From Candidatus Sysuimicrobiota bacterium (GTDB taxonomy: Bacteria > Sysuimicrobiota > Sysuimicrobiia > Sysuimicrobiales > Sysuimicrobiaceae), in the NCBI GenBank assembly GCA_040289515.1, contig PSLI01000016.1, positions 1 to 31,829 of the forward strand: a stretch of 31,829 nt of DNA, written 5' to 3'. Of this stretch, positions 9,075 through 18,020 are shown piece after piece. Position 1 is the first letter of the stretch; each line of letters begins with the position of its first letter. The notes under the pieces are model-generated. The model saw only the letters and a program-made list of their open reading frames with translations, ran no database searches and had not been told where the DNA came from. Position numbers and translations under genes: made by a program.

Positions 9075-9755
9075 CTAGTTGCGCTCCAGCTGGCGGGGCG
9101 AGTGCAGGTGGGCCGCCTTCTGGGCCACCTCCGCATGCGGCGTCCAGGCGTACGGGCCTAGACACGCGGCTAGGATCTGGAGCTTGGCCGCGCGCTCCAG
9201 CTGCAGGGCGAACAGGGCCGCCTCCTCCACGCTGCTGCCCACGGTGACGATACCGTGGTTGCGCATCAGGCACGCCCGCGCGGATCCCAGGGCGCGGGCG
9301 AGCTCCTCTCCTTGCTCCCGGGTCACCACCAGGTCCGTGGTGAAGGTGTAGCGGGGGACGTCCGGCCAGAACAGGGTACCTTCGTGGCTGACGGGCCGCA
9401 GGGGTACGTAAGAGGCAGCCAGGGCGGTAGCGTAGGGCGGGTGTGTGTGCACCACCGCCATCACGTCAGGCCGGGCTCGGTAGATCTCCGCGTGGATGGG
9501 CAGCTCCGAGTGCAGCGGACCAGTTCCCGACACTCTGCGGCCCTCCAGGTCCACCAGCACCACGTCGTCCGGGGTAACCTCGTCCAGACCTAGCCCGCTG
9601 GCCTTGATCCAGTAGTACGGAGTGCCGAGGTGACGCGCGGACACGTGGCCCTGGGTGATGTCCGTGTGCCCTTCCATGGCCAGCACCCGGCAGGCCACGG
9701 CCACCCGCTCGCGCAGCTGCGCGCCTTCCTGTACCCAACGGTCTTCGGACGCCAC
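9075..9755 (-). CDS. Class II aldolase/adducin-fold protein (possible decarboxylase), probably C-terminally truncated by a nonsense codon
   Basis: GHVSAR, SELPIHAEIY.ARPDV.AVVHTH, LMRNHG (Zn-binding His residues). The frame stays open for 17 more codons after the TAG, to TGA at 9021. Confidence 0.88.
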   Translation of the reverse strand: MASEDRWVQEGAQLRERVAVACRVLAMEGHTDITQGHVSARHLGTPYYWIKASGLGLDEVTPDDVVLVDLEGRRVSGTGPLHSELPIHAEIYRARPDVMAVVHTHPPYATALAASYVPLRPVSHEGTLFWPDVPRYTFTTDLVVTREQGEELARALGSARACLMRNHGIVTVGSSVEEAALFALQLERAAKLQILAACLGPYAWTPHAEVAQKAAHLHSPRQLERN

Positions 9756-9798: not shown

Positions 9799-11448
9799 TC
9801 AGCCCAACCCGTCCTCGTGGCCGGTCACCCGCGCGGCCAGGCGGAACACACCCTCCCCGAAGGCGTCGCGGGGCAGGCGGTTGCCCCGCCACGCCACATG
9901 CAGGTCGGGGCGCACCAGGATCAGGTCGAACCGTACACGTCCCGCACGAGTTCGTCGGGTACGTCCAGCACCCCCAGGGGCGCTCCGAAGTACTGAAACG
10001 CCTGCTCCAAAGGTCCGGTGTCCGTGTGCGTGCCGCCCAGGCGGAGCAAGGCGTACCGGTCGTGCGGGAGGCGGTCGTGCAGGGCCGTCCGGTCCCCCAG
10101 CCACAGGTGCGGCAGGCGCGCCCCGGGCCAGGTGGTGGGGCGGTATTCCATGAAGCTGTCCGGGGGCGGGTCGCCGGGCTCGGGCCACACGATGGGGGAT
10201 CCCAGGTAGCGGTAGCCCAGCTCCGTGCCCAGCATCTCGTTGGTCTTGCGCTGCTCCACGTTGGCGATGCGGGCCATCTCCTCACGTGCCCGCTGGCCCT
10301 CGGGGGTGCGGTCCGCGATCCAGGGTTTGTAGGCCGCCCGCCACGCTTGGCGCCCCAGCGCGGCGAAGCGGGCCGCCGCCACCGCTCGTTCCCCCACCGG
10401 GCGCCGTTCCGCCTCGTAGGAGGCCAGCAGCTTGGCACCACCCCAGCCCTTCAGGACCGCGGCCAGCTTCCATGCGAGGTCGGCGGCGTCCCCCACCCCG
10501 GTGTTCGTCCCTAATCCACCCGTGGGGATCACCAAATGGGCCGCGTCCCCGGCCAGGAACACCCGCCCGACCCGGTACCGTTCCGCCAGCAGCAGCTGCT
10601 GCCGCCACCGGCCTGCGTACAGGAGCTCGTAGCGGACTGGCATCCGCACAACCCGCTCGAAGATGCGGGGCATCTCCGCGTCGTCCTCCACCACCGCGTG
10701 CAGGGTGAAGTGGCGGGCGTCGTCCTGCACGATGAGCATGGTCTGCTGGGTATCCGCCACGTGGTAGTGGCGACCCTTGCCGATGGGGATACGCTCGAAC
10801 AGGTCGTGGGAGCGGAACAGGGCCTGGCACAGCTCCCGGATGTTGCCCTCCCCGTGCAGCGGGACGCCCAACAGCTCCCGCACCGTGCTGTTACCCCCAT
10901 CGCAGCCCACCAGGTACTGCGCCCGCACTGCCACCAGGGCTCCGTCGGAGGTCCTGCGGACCTGCGCCGTGACCCCATGGCTGTCCTGGTGGAAGGACAC
11001 CAGCTCATGGCCGTAGCGGACAATGACGTTGGGTAGGGCTTCTACCTCGGCCTTCAAAAGCGGCTCCAGGGTGTACTGGGATGAGCTGGTAGGGCTCCAG
11101 GGGCAGGCTCCCGTCGTTGCGGGACCGGATCTGCGCCTCCGCTTCGGCCACGGAAGGGTAGGGCAGCCGCAGGATGGGCGGATCCACCAGGGAGGTGACC
11201 ACGAACACGTCCATGGGGTAGTGGCGGGGGAACCCTGCCTGCCGGATCTTCTCCGCGATCCCCATCCGCCGGTAGATTTCCATGGTGCGCGCGTTGCAGC
11301 GTTCCATCTTGGGTAGGAACTGGGGTCCCTCCTTGCGCTCCACCAGCACGCACCGGACGCCCCGCTGGCCCAGGTCCAGGGCCAGGGTGAGGCCCACGGG
11401 CCCGGCGCCCACCACGAGCACCTGTGTCTGCCACTGGGCGGTTGCCAT
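9799..11448 (-). pseudogene. FAD-dependent aromatic monooxygenase (PheA/TfdB, FAD_binding_3 family), split by two frameshifts
   Basis: VLVVGAGPVG..LALDL, YLVGCDG..STVR, RVFLAGDAAH...PTGGLG.NTG, PGARLPH, LVRPD.HVAWR. Frames break near 11080 (ATC C CAG TAC) and 9931 (TAC GG TTC). Repaired length is about 550 aa. Confidence 0.85.
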
Positions 11449-12152: not shown

Positions 12153-12233
12153 ATGCGGGCTTGGTTCGGGATCTTCACGGAACGGGTGCTGCGGCGGCTG
12201 GGGAGCGTGACCGAATCCCCCACAGGGAGGTGA
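12153..12233 (+). CDS. Small ORF, 26 aa (MRAWFGIFTERVLRRLGSVTESPTGR)
   Basis: AAAGGGGGT RBS upstream of the ATG. The stop overlaps the GGAGGT RBS of the next gene. Not in the supplied ORF track. Confidence 0.35.
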   Translation: MRAWFGIFTERVLRRLGSVTESPTGR

Positions 12234-12238
12234 GATGC

Positions 12239-13245
12239 GTGTGGAGGCGGCTGGAAATCCTGATGGCCGCAGGGCTCCTGGCCCTGGCGGCTGCGGCACC
12301 TTCGCCCGCCGAGGCGGACCTGGTGGCTGCAGCCAAGCGGGAGGGTCGGCTGGTGCTGTACGGGTCTCTTACAACCCTGGAGGTTGTCAACAAGATCTTC
12401 GAGAGCCGGTACGGAATTCCCGTGGAGTACTGGAGGGCCGCCAGCACCCGGGTGCTAGACCGGGTGCTGAACGAGACCCGCGCAGGGCGAACGCTGTTCG
12501 ACGTGGTCCAGACGAACAGCAGCCCCATGATGGTCCTGCGGGAAGCAGGCGCCTTCGCGCGCTACGCCTCCCCGTCCTACGAGCTGTTCGACCGGGCAAC
12601 CCGCGACCCACAAGCCCTGGTTTCCCCCCAGTTCCTGGTAACTCCCATTGGCATCGTGTATAATAGGCGTTTGTGCGCCCGGAGGAGGCTCCCCGCAGCC
12701 TCACGGACCTGTTGGAGCTCCGGTGGAAGGGGAAGGTGGTGATGGCGGACCCCACCCTCCACACCACCACCGCCCAGTGGCTGATGGAGCTGCGGGGGAT
12801 CCTGGGAGCCCAGTGGCGCTCGTTTTTGGAGCAGCTGGCGGGGCAGGTGGGTGCGTACGTGGAGTCCCTCCTCCCGGTGGCAGACCGGCTCGTGCGGGGC
12901 GAGTTCCCCGTGGGCCTCACCTACATCCGTTACGTGTACCAGTTCGGCAAGGAGGGTGCCCCCTTGGACTACGTGCGCCTGCCCGTGTTTCTGGCGGACG
13001 GCCACCGGATCGCCTTGGGGGCTCGCGCGGCGCGGCCCAATGCGGGGAAGCTGTACATCGAGACGCTGTTGAGTCGGGCGGGCTTGCTGGCCCTGGCGCA
13101 GGACGGGGACTTCGTGTCCCTGCCGGGCGTGTACCCGCCCCTCAAGGACGCGGAGAGGTTGCGGATCGTCGCCATGCGGGATTATGACGAGGCCGCCCTC
13201 ACGCGGGCCAGGGAGGAGCTGGGGCGGATCTTCCGCAGGCGGTGA
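12239..13245 (+). pseudogene. ABC substrate-binding protein, third paralog, with a 1-nt frameshift
   Basis: GTG start after GGAGGT, signal peptide, AAAKREGRLVLY...YWRA. The frame breaks near 12673 (TTG TG CGC; adding one G gives YNRRLVRPEEAPR, matching FNTRLLRREEAPR of the 1853 paralog). Confidence 0.85.
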
Positions 13246-13500
13246 CGAAAGGGAAAGCAGCGAGAATTCCGAACGGCAATGGTGCTGGTGGTGGGGATGT
13301 GTGGCAGGCTGTCCGCGGGCCCTGCGGGTTGCGTTCCTGCGGCCCCTGAGCCGCCCGTTCGCCTTGTGGGGGACCAACGCGCGGAACGGCATGCGCATGG
13401 CGGTGGAGGAGCTGAACGCCGCCGGCGGGACCCTGGGGCGGCCCGTGGAGCTGGTGAAGCGGGACGACCGCAACAACCCCGCGGAGGCCATCCGCAAGGG
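13242..13500 (+). pseudogene. N-terminal fragment of a branched-chain amino acid (LivJ/K-type) ABC substrate-binding protein
   Basis: LRVAFLRPLSRPFALWGTNARNGMRMAVEELNAAGGTLGRPVELVKRDDRNNPAEA matches the family N-terminal pattern. No intact start, and similarity ends after about 60 aa. Confidence 0.75.
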
Positions 13501-13624
13501 CCGCTTCGTCCAGCCCGGGGGAGATCTCCCGGTGGGGTGTGTCCGGGATGCGGCTGGATCTAGAAGTCCGAGTTCGGGGTCCCGCGCCTGGACGTGTACG
13601 TGCCGGAGGAGTGACCCGCAGCGG

Positions 13625-14413
13625 TCAGCCGCTGGCGGCCTGCCGCCGCCTCTGGGTGTCTTCGTAGGCGGTGTAGCCCAGCCGGTAGGACACCTCCCGG
13701 CAGGCGGCCACGATGGCCCGGCGCAGCTCGTCCTTTTGCCGGTGGAACCGGTAGGCGGGTACCGATAGGCTCATGGCCGCCACCACCTCGCCGCGGTGAT
13801 CCCGGATGGGAGCAGCCACGCAGCACAGCTCCAAGACCGCCTCCTCGATGTCCAGGGCATAGCCGCGTTCCCGGACCTCCTCCAGCTCGGCCCGCAGCCG
13901 CTCCGGGTCGGTGATGGTGTTGGGCGTCAGCGGCGGCAGCCCCGTGCGGCTCAGCAACGCCTCCACCTCGGGCCACGGTTGGAAGGCCAGCAGGATCTTG
14001 CCCACCGCGCTGCAGTGGGCAGGCAACTCCACGCCGATCCCCGTGACGGACACCTGCACCGCACGGGTACCCTGCAGCTTGTCCACGTACAGCACCCGGC
14101 CCGATTCCATGGTGGCCAAATGCACCGTCTCCCCGAACCGTGCCACCAAGTCCCCCATCACGGGCCGGGCCTCCACCCGGTACTGGGTGGTGGCCAACAG
14201 CGTGGTGGACAGGGCGAGGATCCGCCAGCCCAGCCGATAGCGGCGGTCCGCGGTGCGGCGCAGTAGGCCGATGTCGCACATGGTGCGCAGGAGGGCGTGA
14301 GCCGTGGACTTGGGGATCCCCAGCAACGAGGCTACCTCGCTCACGCTGCGTTCGGGATGGTCCATCCCGAACAGCTCCAGGACCTGCCCCACCCGCCGGA
14401 CCGTACTGAGCAT
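13625..14413 (-). CDS. IclR-family transcriptional regulator
   Basis: HTH VSEVASLLGIPKSTAHALL, YRLG, GETVHLA, LPAHCSAVGK, TITDPERL..EL..VRERGYA.D.EE, CVAAPI. Confidence 0.95.
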   Translation of the reverse strand: MLSTVRRVGQVLELFGMDHPERSVSEVASLLGIPKSTAHALLRTMCDIGLLRRTADRRYRLGWRILALSTTLLATTQYRVEARPVMGDLVARFGETVHLATMESGRVLYVDKLQGTRAVQVSVTGIGVELPAHCSAVGKILLAFQPWPEVEALLSRTGLPPLTPNTITDPERLRAELEEVRERGYALDIEEAVLELCCVAAPIRDHRGEVVAAMSLSVPAYRFHRQKDELRRAIVAACREVSYRLGYTAYEDTQRRRQAASG

Positions 14414-14421
14414 CGTAGGTC

Positions 14422-14427
14422 ATTTTA
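14422..14427 (-). promoter_or_regulatory. Probable -10 box (TAAAAT) of a leaderless or near-leaderless iclR transcript
   Basis: TAAAAT lies 8 nt before the ATG at 14413, with no Shine-Dalgarno sequence in between. Confidence 0.5.
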
Positions 14428-14458
14428 GCCGCTCGTTACGCTGCTCGAAAAGGGCCAT

Positions 14459-14495
14459 GTTCGGAATGAACGGTGTGGGTTCCGCATTGTTGAAC
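14459..14495. promoter_or_regulatory. Candidate IclR operator(s) in the divergent intergenic region
   Basis: GTTCcgcattgttGAAC (14479-14495, near-palindrome TTCCGCA-T-TGTTGAA) plus GTTCggaatGAAC (14459-14471). Confidence 0.55.
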
Positions 14496-14647
14496 GGAGC
14501 CATTGCCGGACCCTCCCCCTCTGCGCCATCTTTGTGCTGCCAGGCAGCTAGCCCGCGGGCGGGTGAACACGGGTTCGCCTGTTGGCGGGCTGTTTGTCAA
14601 CCGGGTGGGCGCTGCCAGGGGATGAAGCGAGGGGAGGGAGGCGCGGG

Positions 14648-15073
14648 ATGGAGGCGTTACCGGAACGGCGCATGTCGGAGGAGGAGCTGCAGCGGCTTCG
14701 GTCCGTGTACGTGGACCTGGTGGGGTTCGTACCGCCCCGGATCCAGGCCCGCACGGAGCTGCTGAGCCGCCTGGACCCCGAAGGTTTGCGCATCCAGGAG
14801 GAGATGCGGCGGCACTTCATGTACCCCAGGTGTTTCGACACCAAGACGGCACAGCTGATGCTGTTCGGCATGCTGCTTGTGAACCTGCAGGACGCGGCCA
14901 AGCTGCACGCCATCGCGGCCCGGCGCGCGGGGGCCACGTGGGAGGAACTGAGTGCGGTGGTGGGGCTGGCCTTCCTGTTCCGGGGCCTGTCGGCGGCCAA
15001 CTACGGGTTCCAAATCCTGCAGGAGATGGCGCAGGTGGAAGCCAGCCAGTCCGAAATCCCGCAGAGGAGGTGA
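14648..15073 (+). CDS. Carboxymuconolactone decarboxylase / AhpD-like family protein
   Basis: [14 protein letters not shown]..., [16 protein letters not shown] pattern, 141 aa, GGAGGGAGG RBS, no CxxC. Confidence 0.8.
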
Positions 15074-15078
15074 GCTCG

Positions 15079-16059
15079 ATGACAGAACCCTTGGTGGCAC
15101 AGCTGGCCCACGTGGAAATCCTGACCCCAAGGCCCGAGCAAACCCTCTGGTTCTTTCACCACCTGCTGGGGATGGAGGAGACCACCCGGCAGGGGCCGTC
15201 GGTGTACCTGCGGGCGTACGAGGACTGGTATCACCACACCTTGAAGGTCACAGAGGGCTCCGAAGCGGCCCTGGGGCACATCGCGTGGCGGGCCTCATCG
15301 GAGGAGGCCCTGGAGGAACTCGTCCGCAGGCTGGAGCGGGCGGGGCTGGGGCGCGGCTGGATCGACGGCGACCTCGGCCACGGCCGCGCCTACCGGTTCG
15401 TTACCCCCGAGGGCCACCCCATGGAAGTCCTGTGGGAGGTGGAGGGCTACCGGCCCCCCGAGGAAATGCGCACCGTTCTGCGGAACCGGCCTCAGAAGCG
15501 GCCCCTGCGGGGGGTGCCCGTGCGCCGCATCGACCACGTGAACATCATGGCGCGTGCGGTGGGCCCCGTGCGGGAGTTCCTCACGGACCTTTTGGGCTTC
15601 CGGCTGCGGGAGCAGAAGCTGGGCAGGGATGGGGAGGAAGTGGGCGCCTGGCTCAGCGTGAGTCCCCTGGTGCACGAGATCGCCGTCATGCGGGACGCCA
15701 CGGGCCACCATGGCCGGTTCCACCACGTGGCGTACTGGTACGGGTACCCGCAGCACCTTATGGACGCGGCAGACGTGATGGTGGACTACGGAGTGCGCAT
15801 CGAGGCAGGGCCGGGCAAGCATGGCACCACCCAGGCCTACTTCATGTACGTGTTCGAACCGGGGGGTGTGCGCGTGGAGCTGTTCGGGGACACCGGCTAC
15901 CTCATCTTCGACCCCGCGTGGAAAACCGTGGTGTGGGACGTATCCAACGAGAGCGACCTGGAGCGCAGCAGCATCTGGTTTGGCGGGGGGCTGCCGGAGA
16001 CCTTCTACACCTACGGGGTGCCCCCCGTAGCCCCGGAGGCTGTGACGGGGCGAAGGTAG
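15079..16059 (+). CDS. Catechol 2,3-dioxygenase-type extradiol dioxygenase (two-domain VOC)
   Basis: [22 protein letters not shown], metal ligands IDHVN / FHHVAY / RVELF, HEIA, GPGKHG...[19 protein letters not shown]. Confidence 0.92.
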
Positions 16060-16073
16060 GAGGTGAGGGAAGC

Positions 16074-16805
16074 ATGGGATGCAGCCCTCTGGAGGCATCC
16101 GGCCTCCCTTTGTTCTTCCCGCTTGACCGGGCAGCGACGGGCCGAACGCCGCCAGCGGCCTCATCGGGCGTGGCGGTCCGGACTGCGGCAGGGTCCCTGT
16201 CCCGCATGCAAAAGGAGGCCTTGGTGGTCACCACCGCTGCAGCCGTGACGTGGCGGCTAGCCAGCGACGAGGCACCCTACCTGCTGGGGGACGACGTGGC
16301 GCCTCCCCCGTTGGCGTTCGTGCGTGTGGGGCCGGTCACCGACTTTGCGGAGAGGCTGCGGCAAGCCGCGGGAGTCCCGGCGGCAGAGGTAACCGTGTTG
16401 CAGGACACCCGGTACACCATGAAGGGCTCCGCTACCCAAGGGGCCCTGCTGCCCGCGGACCCTCCCCCTCGCCCCGACCTGCGGGATCGATTCTCGCACT
16501 TGCGTCCGCAAGGCGACCGCGGTGCCGTGCGGAGGGATGCAGTTACCCCGAAGACGGAGGAGGAAACGAGTTCGGAAGGGTCCAGCTTGGCGGAGACTCA
16601 AGAGCGGAAGGGTCTGCGGGCCTTCCGCGTGATACAGGACACGGGCTTCCGACCGGGAGGCGCTGCCGCGCCCGTGGTGACCCATGCGTACCTGGACACC
16701 GAAGAGGAGGATGCCTTCGCCCAGGAGTTGGTGGCCGTGGGAGGACGCACCTGCTTCGTGCACGGCCGGTGCCGGACGGAGCTGGACGTACGGGTGGTTG
16801 CGTGA
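16074..16805 (+). CDS. OsmC-related protein, possibly internally deleted
   Basis: WRLASDEAPYL.G.D.APPPLA, QDTRYTM.GSA, a repeated VIQDT motif and C-terminal TCFVH. The middle is low-complexity. The ATG follows GGAGGTGAGGG. Confidence 0.6.
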   Translation: MGCSPLEASGLPLFFPLDRAATGRTPPAASSGVAVRTAAGSLSRMQKEALVVTTAAAVTWRLASDEAPYLLGDDVAPPPLAFVRVGPVTDFAERLRQAAGVPAAEVTVLQDTRYTMKGSATQGALLPADPPPRPDLRDRFSHLRPQGDRGAVRRDAVTPKTEEETSSEGSSLAETQERKGLRAFRVIQDTGFRPGGAAAPVVTHAYLDTEEEDAFAQELVAVGGRTCFVHGRCRTELDVRVVA

Positions 16806-16823
16806 CCCGTGGGGAGGTGACGG

Positions 16824-18020
16824 TTGCCCGCAACCCAGGTGGCCATCGTGGGTGCCGGTCCCGCAGGCCTCCTCCTGAGCCATCTGCTGGACCGGGTGGG
16901 GATCCGCAGTGTGGTGCTGGAGTCCCGCAGCCGCGCGTACGTGGAGCAGCGAGTGCGGGCGGGGGTGTTGGAGGACGGGACGCGGCAGATCCTCCTGCGG
17001 GCCGGGGTGGGCGACCGCATGGAGCGGCAGGGGCTCGTGCACGAGGGCGTTAACTTCGCCTTCGAGGGGTCCTTGCTGCACTTCGACTTTCCTGCGCTCA
17101 CGGGCGGACACACCGTCACTGTGTACGGACAGCAGGAGGTGGTGAAGGACCTGATCCGGGCCCGCCAGGAGGGGGGTGGCGACGTCCGGTTCGAGGCGGA
17201 AGTGGTGCGGCTGGAGGAAGTGGAGCGCCGCCCCAGGGTGGTCTACCGCACCCCGGATGGGTCGGAGGAGGAGCTGGAGGCGGACTTCGTGGCGGGCTGC
17301 GACGGGTCCCACGGGGTCTGCCGCGCGGCGATCCCGCACACCGTGCGCCGGGTGCACCAGCGGGCGTACCCCTTCGCGTGGCTGGGGATCCTCGCAGAGG
17401 CCCCGCCCGCCTCCCACGAACTCATCTACGTGAACCACCCGCGCGGCTTCGCGCTCTTCAGCATGCGATCGCCCCGTCTGTCACGGAACTACGTGCAGGT
17501 GCGGGCCGAGGAACGTTTGGAGGACTGGCCGGACTCCCGTGTGTGGGAGGAGCTGGAGCGTCGCCTGGCCGGTGCGGCCCGCGTCACGCCGGGGCCCGTG
17601 CTGGAGAAGAGCCTGGCACCCCTGCGCAGCCTGGTGGTGGAACCCATGCAGCACGGTCGCTTGTTCCTTGCGGGCGACGCGGCGCACGTGGTCCCGCCCA
17701 CGGGTGCCAAGGGGTTGAACCTGGCCGTGTGCGACGTGGTGGTGCTGAGCCGGGCCCTGGCCGACTACTACCGGGCCGGTGACGAGACCGGACTGCGGTC
17801 GTACACGGAGTGGTGCCTGGAGCATGTGTGGCAGGCGGAGCACTTCTCGTGGTGGATGACCCAGCTGCTCCACCGCCTGGATGACCCCTTCGAGGAGGGG
17901 ATGCAGCGGGCGCAGCTGCGTGCCCTGCGCCGCAGCGAGGCCGCGCGTCGGTACCTGGCGGAGAACTACACGGGGCTGCACACCAGCCTGCGGTACACGG
18001 AGTGGGTCCTGCCCTCGTAG
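16824..18020 (+). CDS. pobA: 4-hydroxybenzoate 3-monooxygenase
   Basis: TQVAIVGAGPAGL, RVRAGVLE, YGQQEVVKDL, YPFAWLGIL, ELIY...RGFAL.SMRS, HVVPPTGAKGLNLA, FSWWMT.LLH, LAENY.GL. Confidence 0.95.
   Translation: MPATQVAIVGAGPAGLLLSHLLDRVGIRSVVLESRSRAYVEQRVRAGVLEDGTRQILLRAGVGDRMERQGLVHEGVNFAFEGSLLHFDFPALTGGHTVTVYGQQEVVKDLIRARQEGGGDVRFEAEVVRLEEVERRPRVVYRTPDGSEEELEADFVAGCDGSHGVCRAAIPHTVRRVHQRAYPFAWLGILAEAPPASHELIYVNHPRGFALFSMRSPRLSRNYVQVRAEERLEDWPDSRVWEELERRLAGAARVTPGPVLEKSLAPLRSLVVEPMQHGRLFLAGDAAHVVPPTGAKGLNLAVCDVVVLSRALADYYRAGDETGLRSYTEWCLEHVWQAEHFSWWMTQLLHRLDDPFEEGMQRAQLRALRRSEAARRYLAENYTGLHTSLRYTEWVLPS

Follow-up and report, generated by a model that had tools for sequence, protein, structure and literature searches.

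A Sysuimicrobiota operon as a probable new host of the 4-hydroxybenzoate route reported for Thermus oshimai

Gene content and layout of the locus

A 31,829-nucleotide stretch of Candidatus Sysuimicrobiota DNA (assembly GCA_040289515.1, contig PSLI01000016.1), hereafter the window, was analyzed for a gene cluster predicted to degrade 4-hydroxybenzoate, an acid of plant origin; the window corresponds to contig C42 in a genome (G000) of 1.99 Mb with 70% GC and 96.7% completeness. Family scans confirmed all five genes of the cluster. The minus strand carries iclR (13625-14413; PF01614/PF09339), encoding an IclR-family regulator with 66% identity over 247 aa to THEOS_RS12265 of Thermus oshimai JL-2 and a matching divergent position. 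Beyond a gap of 234 bp, the plus strand carries cmd (14648-15073; PF02627), whose 141-aa product of the carboxymuconolactone decarboxylase (CMD)/AhpD fold is 73% identical to THEOS_RS10945, followed by the gene of an AphC/PheC-like type I (VOC) extradiol dioxygenase, catechol 2,3-dioxygenase (C23O; 15079-16059; TIGR03211; 72% identity to THEOS_RS10950), an OsmC-like open reading frame (ORF; 16074-16805), and pobA (16824-18020; NF006091; 62% identity to THEOS_RS11015), encoding 4-hydroxybenzoate 3-monooxygenase. Since the gaps between the four plus-strand genes are only 5, 14, and 18 bp, these genes fit one operon, and family scans and spacing bore out the close-packed run divergent from iclR that the initial annotation had described. 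A GGAGG-like site lies 5' of each operon gene. As reported for T. oshimai, the operon probably runs from 4-hydroxybenzoate via protocatechuate (PCA) and catechol to meta cleavage.

The CMD protein scored 18.5 bits against the PcaC model TIGR02425, far below the cut-off of 155.7, and the genome had no intradiol dioxygenase match, by which its identification as PcaC was ruled out. An AhpD peroxidase was likewise ruled out, as the protein contains only one Cys and lacks CxxC, the motif that defines AhpD and that was found in none of 120 CMD homologues. All six top structural matches of the predicted model (mean pLDDT 91.6) were CMD-family proteins, headed by 2qeu (Z 13.3, rmsd 2.9, 126 aligned); a Foldseek search with the model returned nothing at E <= 0.001, its weaker rows being CMD-family, and a PDB sequence search gave one weak match, 2af7 (E 0.28). 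Polar residues invariant across 46 CMD sequences included R31, R35, R41, E51, R54, D64, K66, D82, H87, R93, E100, and N118. The subfamily comprises 2,817 proteins, and cmd loci were found in Chloroflexota, Actinomycetota, Rokubacteria, and Thermus as well as in the host lineage. The nearest cmd relatives in named genome records, at 81-93%, include those of a hot-spring lineage (Ca. Tepidifontimicrobium thermophilum, L037; Ca. Sysuimicrobium calidum, L042). Judging from its orthology to THEOS_RS10945, the CMD protein is likely a PCA decarboxylase.

PobA scored 566 bits with NF006091 (cut-off 351) and 518 with TIGR02360, just below the cut-off of 539. It aligned to PHBH structures (E 1e-129), with Tyr, Ser, Arg, Tyr, and Tyr kept at PHBH positions 201, 212, 214, 222, and 385, which are substrate-site residues. 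C23O exceeded the cut-off of TIGR03211 (327 vs 320 bits) and fell below that of the homoprotocatechuate 2,3-dioxygenase (HPCD) model TIGR02295 (199 vs 321), and its best PDB matches were 3LM4/7Q2A (AphC; E 5e-93). The metal triad H153/H216/E267 and the catalytic H199/H248/Y257 are retained, and Ala243 occupies the position of HPCD Arg243, which binds the substrate carboxylate. The active-site motifs of the dioxygenases partnering cmd fell into at least three types (KHGTT, KHAVT, and KHNIS), and Arg was found at the 243 site in none of those read. Ala243 and the three partner motif types favor catechol as the substrate of C23O, with PCA still possible; the direct cleavage of PCA by the VOC enzyme, as the initial annotation had considered, appears less likely. 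The other VOC proteins in the genome (contigs C57, C49, and C75) scored far under the dioxygenase cut-offs; that on C57 is presumably CatE/YfiE-like, and the window C23O may not be the sole catechol cleaver of this genome.

Scanning of the 38 window ORFs revealed no PcaGH, LigB-fold, or UbiD family, in agreement with the earlier statement that the window holds neither a known PCA dioxygenase nor a UbiD-type decarboxylase. The genome-wide search for pcaGH, ligAB, praA, and aroY likewise gave no match to PF00775 (intradiol), PF02900 (LigB/PraA), or PF01977 (UbiD), which at 96.7% completeness is not proof of absence; as positive controls, these families had matches in 5, 4, and 9 of 14 genomes, respectively. 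For the lower meta pathway, contig C6 harbors dmpF and dmpG above cut-off and DmpC-, DmpE-, and DmpH-like genes below cut-off with 54-69% identity to T. oshimai (54-76% for the C6 lower-pathway genes overall), and no ring-cleaving enzyme was found on C6.

The OsmC-like ORF encodes 243 aa compared with ~370 in the relative G010, having lost segments of 55 and 68 aa in frame (123 residues in total); the second loss removes AFCF, the first of two Cys motifs. It had no match to PF02566, which the intact G010 copy matches, and only a weak one to NF041052 (38 bits, cut-off 95). G005, G007, G008, and G011 carry copies disrupted differently, whereas the gene was absent between C23O and pobA in G001, G002, G004, and G006 and does not appear in the annotation of the T. 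oshimai cluster; its state in G003 was not assessable. Thus, the OsmC-like gene of the initial annotation is present in the run but not intact, and its deletions suggest that it is likely a non-working leftover, a pseudogene remnant with no needed part in the pathway. The intact G010 gene heads a run (L025, 10259-15534) with GntR, two M24-peptidase-like, and ornithine-cyclodeaminase-like genes (names from ORF reading), which is likely its original unit.

Upstream of cmd, an intact GTTC-N9-GAAC motif (14479-14495) is the second of two tandem copies and the only intact one in the window, the first (14459-14471) being shortened to N5. Two copies with 0-1 mismatch were present in 11 of the 12 other upstream regions scanned, including that of T. 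oshimai, and none in the remaining one (L065). The exact motif occurs 35 times in the 1.99 Mb genome, i.e., 0.004 expected per 250 bp. This motif is the predicted IclR operator, through which IclR may control the operon. A sigma-70 scan gave 0 promoters, and terminator-like sites numbered 2 versus 1.6 expected.

Several other genes were noted in the window and elsewhere in the genome. A PRK06126-like FAD monooxygenase gene (9921-11448, minus strand) and a solute-binding protein gene (12161-13245, plus strand) are frameshifted, and a LivJ-like fragment (13184-13560, plus strand) is longer in relatives, all of which hints at decay of this stretch or at an error in the assembly. In three relatives (L019, L020, and L022), a block of binding-protein and ABC transporter genes, absent from the window, sits between iclR and cmd. 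Beside the lower meta pathway, C6 (L116) carries Rieske dioxygenase and class II aldolase-like genes, two of each, and an HpaB-like gene; the HcaE/F/B-like cluster on C41 (L117) is akin to the Rieske pair of T. oshimai; and C70 carries a separate hpa cluster with its own HpaD (TIGR02295, 394 bits vs cut-off 321).

Distribution of cmd and its partners

Among 61 genomes of relatives, 14 had a strong cmd orthologue; a fifteenth, G036, had a weak cmd match beside a pcaH-like gene and was excluded as a probable PcaC, and G023 enters the denominators of 61 only. As kin in this set are not independent, the presence pattern is descriptive. In all 13 other relative regions cmd is directly followed by C23O, and pobA is downstream in six, divergent in two, on another contig in four (in one of these cases the contig is short and breaks off within C23O), and not found in one. 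In G002, the lower pathway lies behind iclR, like in Thermus. Overall, pobA was present in 21 of the 61 relatives, 13 with cmd and eight without it. A pcaHG-like pair was detected in all eight pobA genomes without cmd versus one of the 13 with cmd (G050, which has two pobA copies), and no LigB was found in the 14 genomes with cmd.

For a wider set, the top 80 were taken out of 399 genome loci, with close kin included and two loci from one genome. C23O lay directly downstream of cmd in 47 of these and within the locus in 61, while lower-pathway genes were found in 23, OsmC in three, and a class II aldolase in one. Given the cmd-C23O adjacency in 13/13 relatives and 47/80 wider loci, this gene arrangement is not due to chance. 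Of the four-gene synteny proposed for checking at the outset, the cmd-C23O pair is thus conserved, the OsmC-like gene is not, and pobA accompanies cmd in 21 of the 80 loci.

Further genes recur near cmd in the 72 distant loci. A MetE-like gene (PRK06520-like, cobalamin-independent methionine-synthase-domain) was observed in 27 and an MTHFR/MetV-like gene in six, and in L102, L107, L108, L112, L114, and L115 cmd is followed by the MetE-like gene with C23O not nearby. It is speculated that the MetE-like and MTHFR genes form an O-demethylation module feeding PCA; a search of G000 with one query gave no match. The order TPP-decarboxylase-like subunits, HpaB-like gene, cmd, and C23O recurs in L071, L076, L077, L083, L088, L090, L091, L105, and L109, and the HpaB-like gene on C6 of G000 is a 69% identical copy of the cmd-locus HpaB-like gene.

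Pathway reading and alternatives

In the proposed pathway, PobA would turn 4-hydroxybenzoate into PCA, the small CMD-fold protein would decarboxylate PCA to catechol, and C23O would open the catechol ring to 2-hydroxymuconic semialdehyde, to be finished by the dmpC-, dmpH-, dmpE-, dmpF-, and dmpG-like genes on C6. The decarboxylation could be cofactor-free, with the para-phenolate protonated at C1 to a ring-protonated dienone from which CO2 is lost, and the invariant His87, Asp82, and Arg residues are candidate catalytic residues. An enzyme of other origin, AGDC1, is already known to decarboxylate PCA independently of a cofactor (extract of PMC12220188). According to section 2.3 of PMC10815724, Chakraborty et al. 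(2021; AEM 87:e01589-20) reported that a carboxymuconolactone decarboxylase turns PCA into catechol in T. oshimai JL-2. As one of two alternatives, the initial annotation had PCA decarboxylated to catechol by an unrecognised enzyme, for which the CMD-like and class II aldolase-fold proteins were candidates; decarboxylation ahead of cleavage finds support for the CMD-like protein in the orthologous T. oshimai cluster, where the role had already been reported and the enzyme is hence not unrecognised (PMC10815724, same section). This uncommon pathway is already published for T. oshimai, and the present locus probably extends it to a further host rather than representing a new pathway. The aldolase proposal fails, as that gene is not linked to the unit: it lies at 9075-9755 on the opposite strand, ~4 kb off, scores 110 bits with the PhtC model (cut-off 200), and is not syntenic, with 0 of 13 relative regions and only the single wider locus noted above.

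A number of observations weigh against this reading. The gene tested in T. oshimai would be THEOS_RS10945, judging from its sole-CMD status on plasmid pTHEOS01, whose one PF02627 gene is the orthologue of the window CMD. The upper pathway reportedly lies on a 0.27 Mb plasmid, with gene deletion as the evidence, and we know of no in vitro assay of the T. oshimai CMD. In the window genome, 4-oxalocrotonate tautomerase was not found, nor was a close 2-hydroxymuconic semialdehyde hydrolase (best 29%). C23O tracks cmd more tightly than pobA does (61 vs 21 of the 80 loci), and when 50 distant cmd genomes without an adjacent pobA were selected, only eight held pobA (50 genomes searched out of 57 distant loci without pobA, genome completeness not given). 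Because pobA is rare in distant cmd loci and genomes, cmd is linked more closely with catechol meta cleavage than with PobA. Moreover, an HpaB-like monooxygenase gene lies near cmd in 13 of the 72 distant loci and never together with pobA (0/72); it may replace PobA or hydroxylate phenol, and other PCA sources may explain cmd without pobA. Furthermore, three of the six residues of the AphC 4-alkyl pocket are polar in C23O (T250, S298, and Y310, with S298 weakly aligned), and R296 is near the pocket, compatible with a 4-carboxy substrate.

The polar pocket, together with the frequent adjacency of cmd and C23O, would suit a reversed order, in which the VOC enzyme cuts PCA at the 2,3 position and CMD decarboxylates 5-carboxy-2-hydroxymuconic semialdehyde, a non-homologous route of the PraA/PraH type. 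One lower pathway serves both orders (PraH, B, C, D, and E in an extract of PMC10765951), the established substrate of PcaC is non-aromatic, and a cmd deletion might likewise stall PCA use. Nevertheless, this order seems unlikely, since the HPCD-type Arg243 is missing, the partner dioxygenases are of more than one type, the T. oshimai orthologue has been read in print as converting PCA to catechol (section 2.3 of PMC10815724), and the closest characterized homologue, AphC, has a hydrophobic C4 pocket and was assayed with catechol and 4-alkyl/phenyl catechols (extract of PMC9062432). The 42 of 50 selected distant cmd genomes without pobA, the mutual exclusion of HpaB-like genes and pobA at cmd loci, and the large size of the family could instead point to CMD as a non-redox C23O helper (folding, metal loading, or rescue) or as a broader hydroxybenzoate decarboxylase, e.g., of 4-hydroxybenzoate to phenol beside an HpaB-like hydroxylase. 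This is judged improbable, as other PCA sources are plausible (the Thermus QuiC-like gene, and the MTHFR and MetE-like genes suggesting O-demethylation) and a dedicated C23O helper would not be expected at the six MetE-like loci listed above, which have cmd and no C23O nearby. The initial annotation had also suggested a redox-helper role for the OsmC-like and CMD-like proteins in place of an XylT-type ferredoxin. The cluster does lack an XylT-like gene, the genome's four Fer2 matches being on other contigs, and both folds belong to superfamilies that contain peroxidases, but such help through thiol redox chemistry is highly improbable and largely refuted by sequence: the OsmC copy is one Cys motif short and the gene is broken or lost in most relatives, and, less forcefully, the CMD protein has no CxxC.

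Decarboxylation of PCA followed by catechol cleavage thus remains the probable course, and with this locus the published pathway gains a host lineage and an operon of compact layout. It is conceivable, if doubtful, that the CMD subfamily comprises widespread cofactor-free aromatic-acid decarboxylases beyond the PobA route, or that it acts once the ring is open, alongside what would be the first VOC-fold PCA 2,3-dioxygenase; with either role, the one assignment published so far, that for T. oshimai, would have to be widened or revised. On the way from lignin aromatics to muconate, decarboxylation of PCA is the key step. Enzymes of the AroY type are sensitive to oxygen and often depend on a partner that makes their cofactor (extract of PMC12220188). 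CMD-family chemistry appears uncharacterised in the literature searched, and this family of 141-residue proteins, which runs to thousands of members and has no near relative among solved structures, would be a useful pool of likely heat-stable and likely cofactor-free enzymes.

Comparison with known systems

In a tblastn search of plasmids, Thermus plasmids ranked top for both CMD and C23O. Plasmid pTHEOS01 of T. oshimai JL-2 carries lower meta genes with iclR; the divergent run opens with cmd and C23O, after which come transporters, a QuiC-like gene, and, ahead of pobA, a Rieske pair. Both systems have a divergent iclR, cmd-C23O as the first genes, pobA downstream, the GTTC-N9-GAAC operator, and a catechol-type lower meta pathway, whereas the window operon is compact, without the TTT/ABC transporters, QuiC-like gene, and Rieske pair, has its lower pathway on another contig and an OsmC remnant inserted, and belongs to a different lineage.

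The pra pathway of Paenibacillus sp. JJ-1b likewise leads from 4-hydroxybenzoate via PCA to a meta-type lower pathway, but it uses a PCA 2,3-dioxygenase and PraH. PraA has the LigB fold and PraH is an amidohydrolase, whereas the window genome has no LigB match and its amidohydrolases, three of them without an NCBIfam label, are on contigs other than the window; with neither a LigB-fold PraA nor a clustered PraH, the locus does not belong to the Pra pathway. PcaC and AhpD share the CMD/AhpD helical fold with the window CMD, which differs from the former by its score under the TIGR02425 cut-off in a genome without a pcaGH match and from the latter by having no CxxC. AphC of Rhodococcus jostii RHA1, the closest solved dioxygenase, has the metal triad and the catalytic His, His, and Tyr in common with C23O, but it serves alkylphenol catabolism (extract of PMC9062432), and its pocket residues I251, L296, and F309 are Thr, Ser, and Tyr in the window enzyme.

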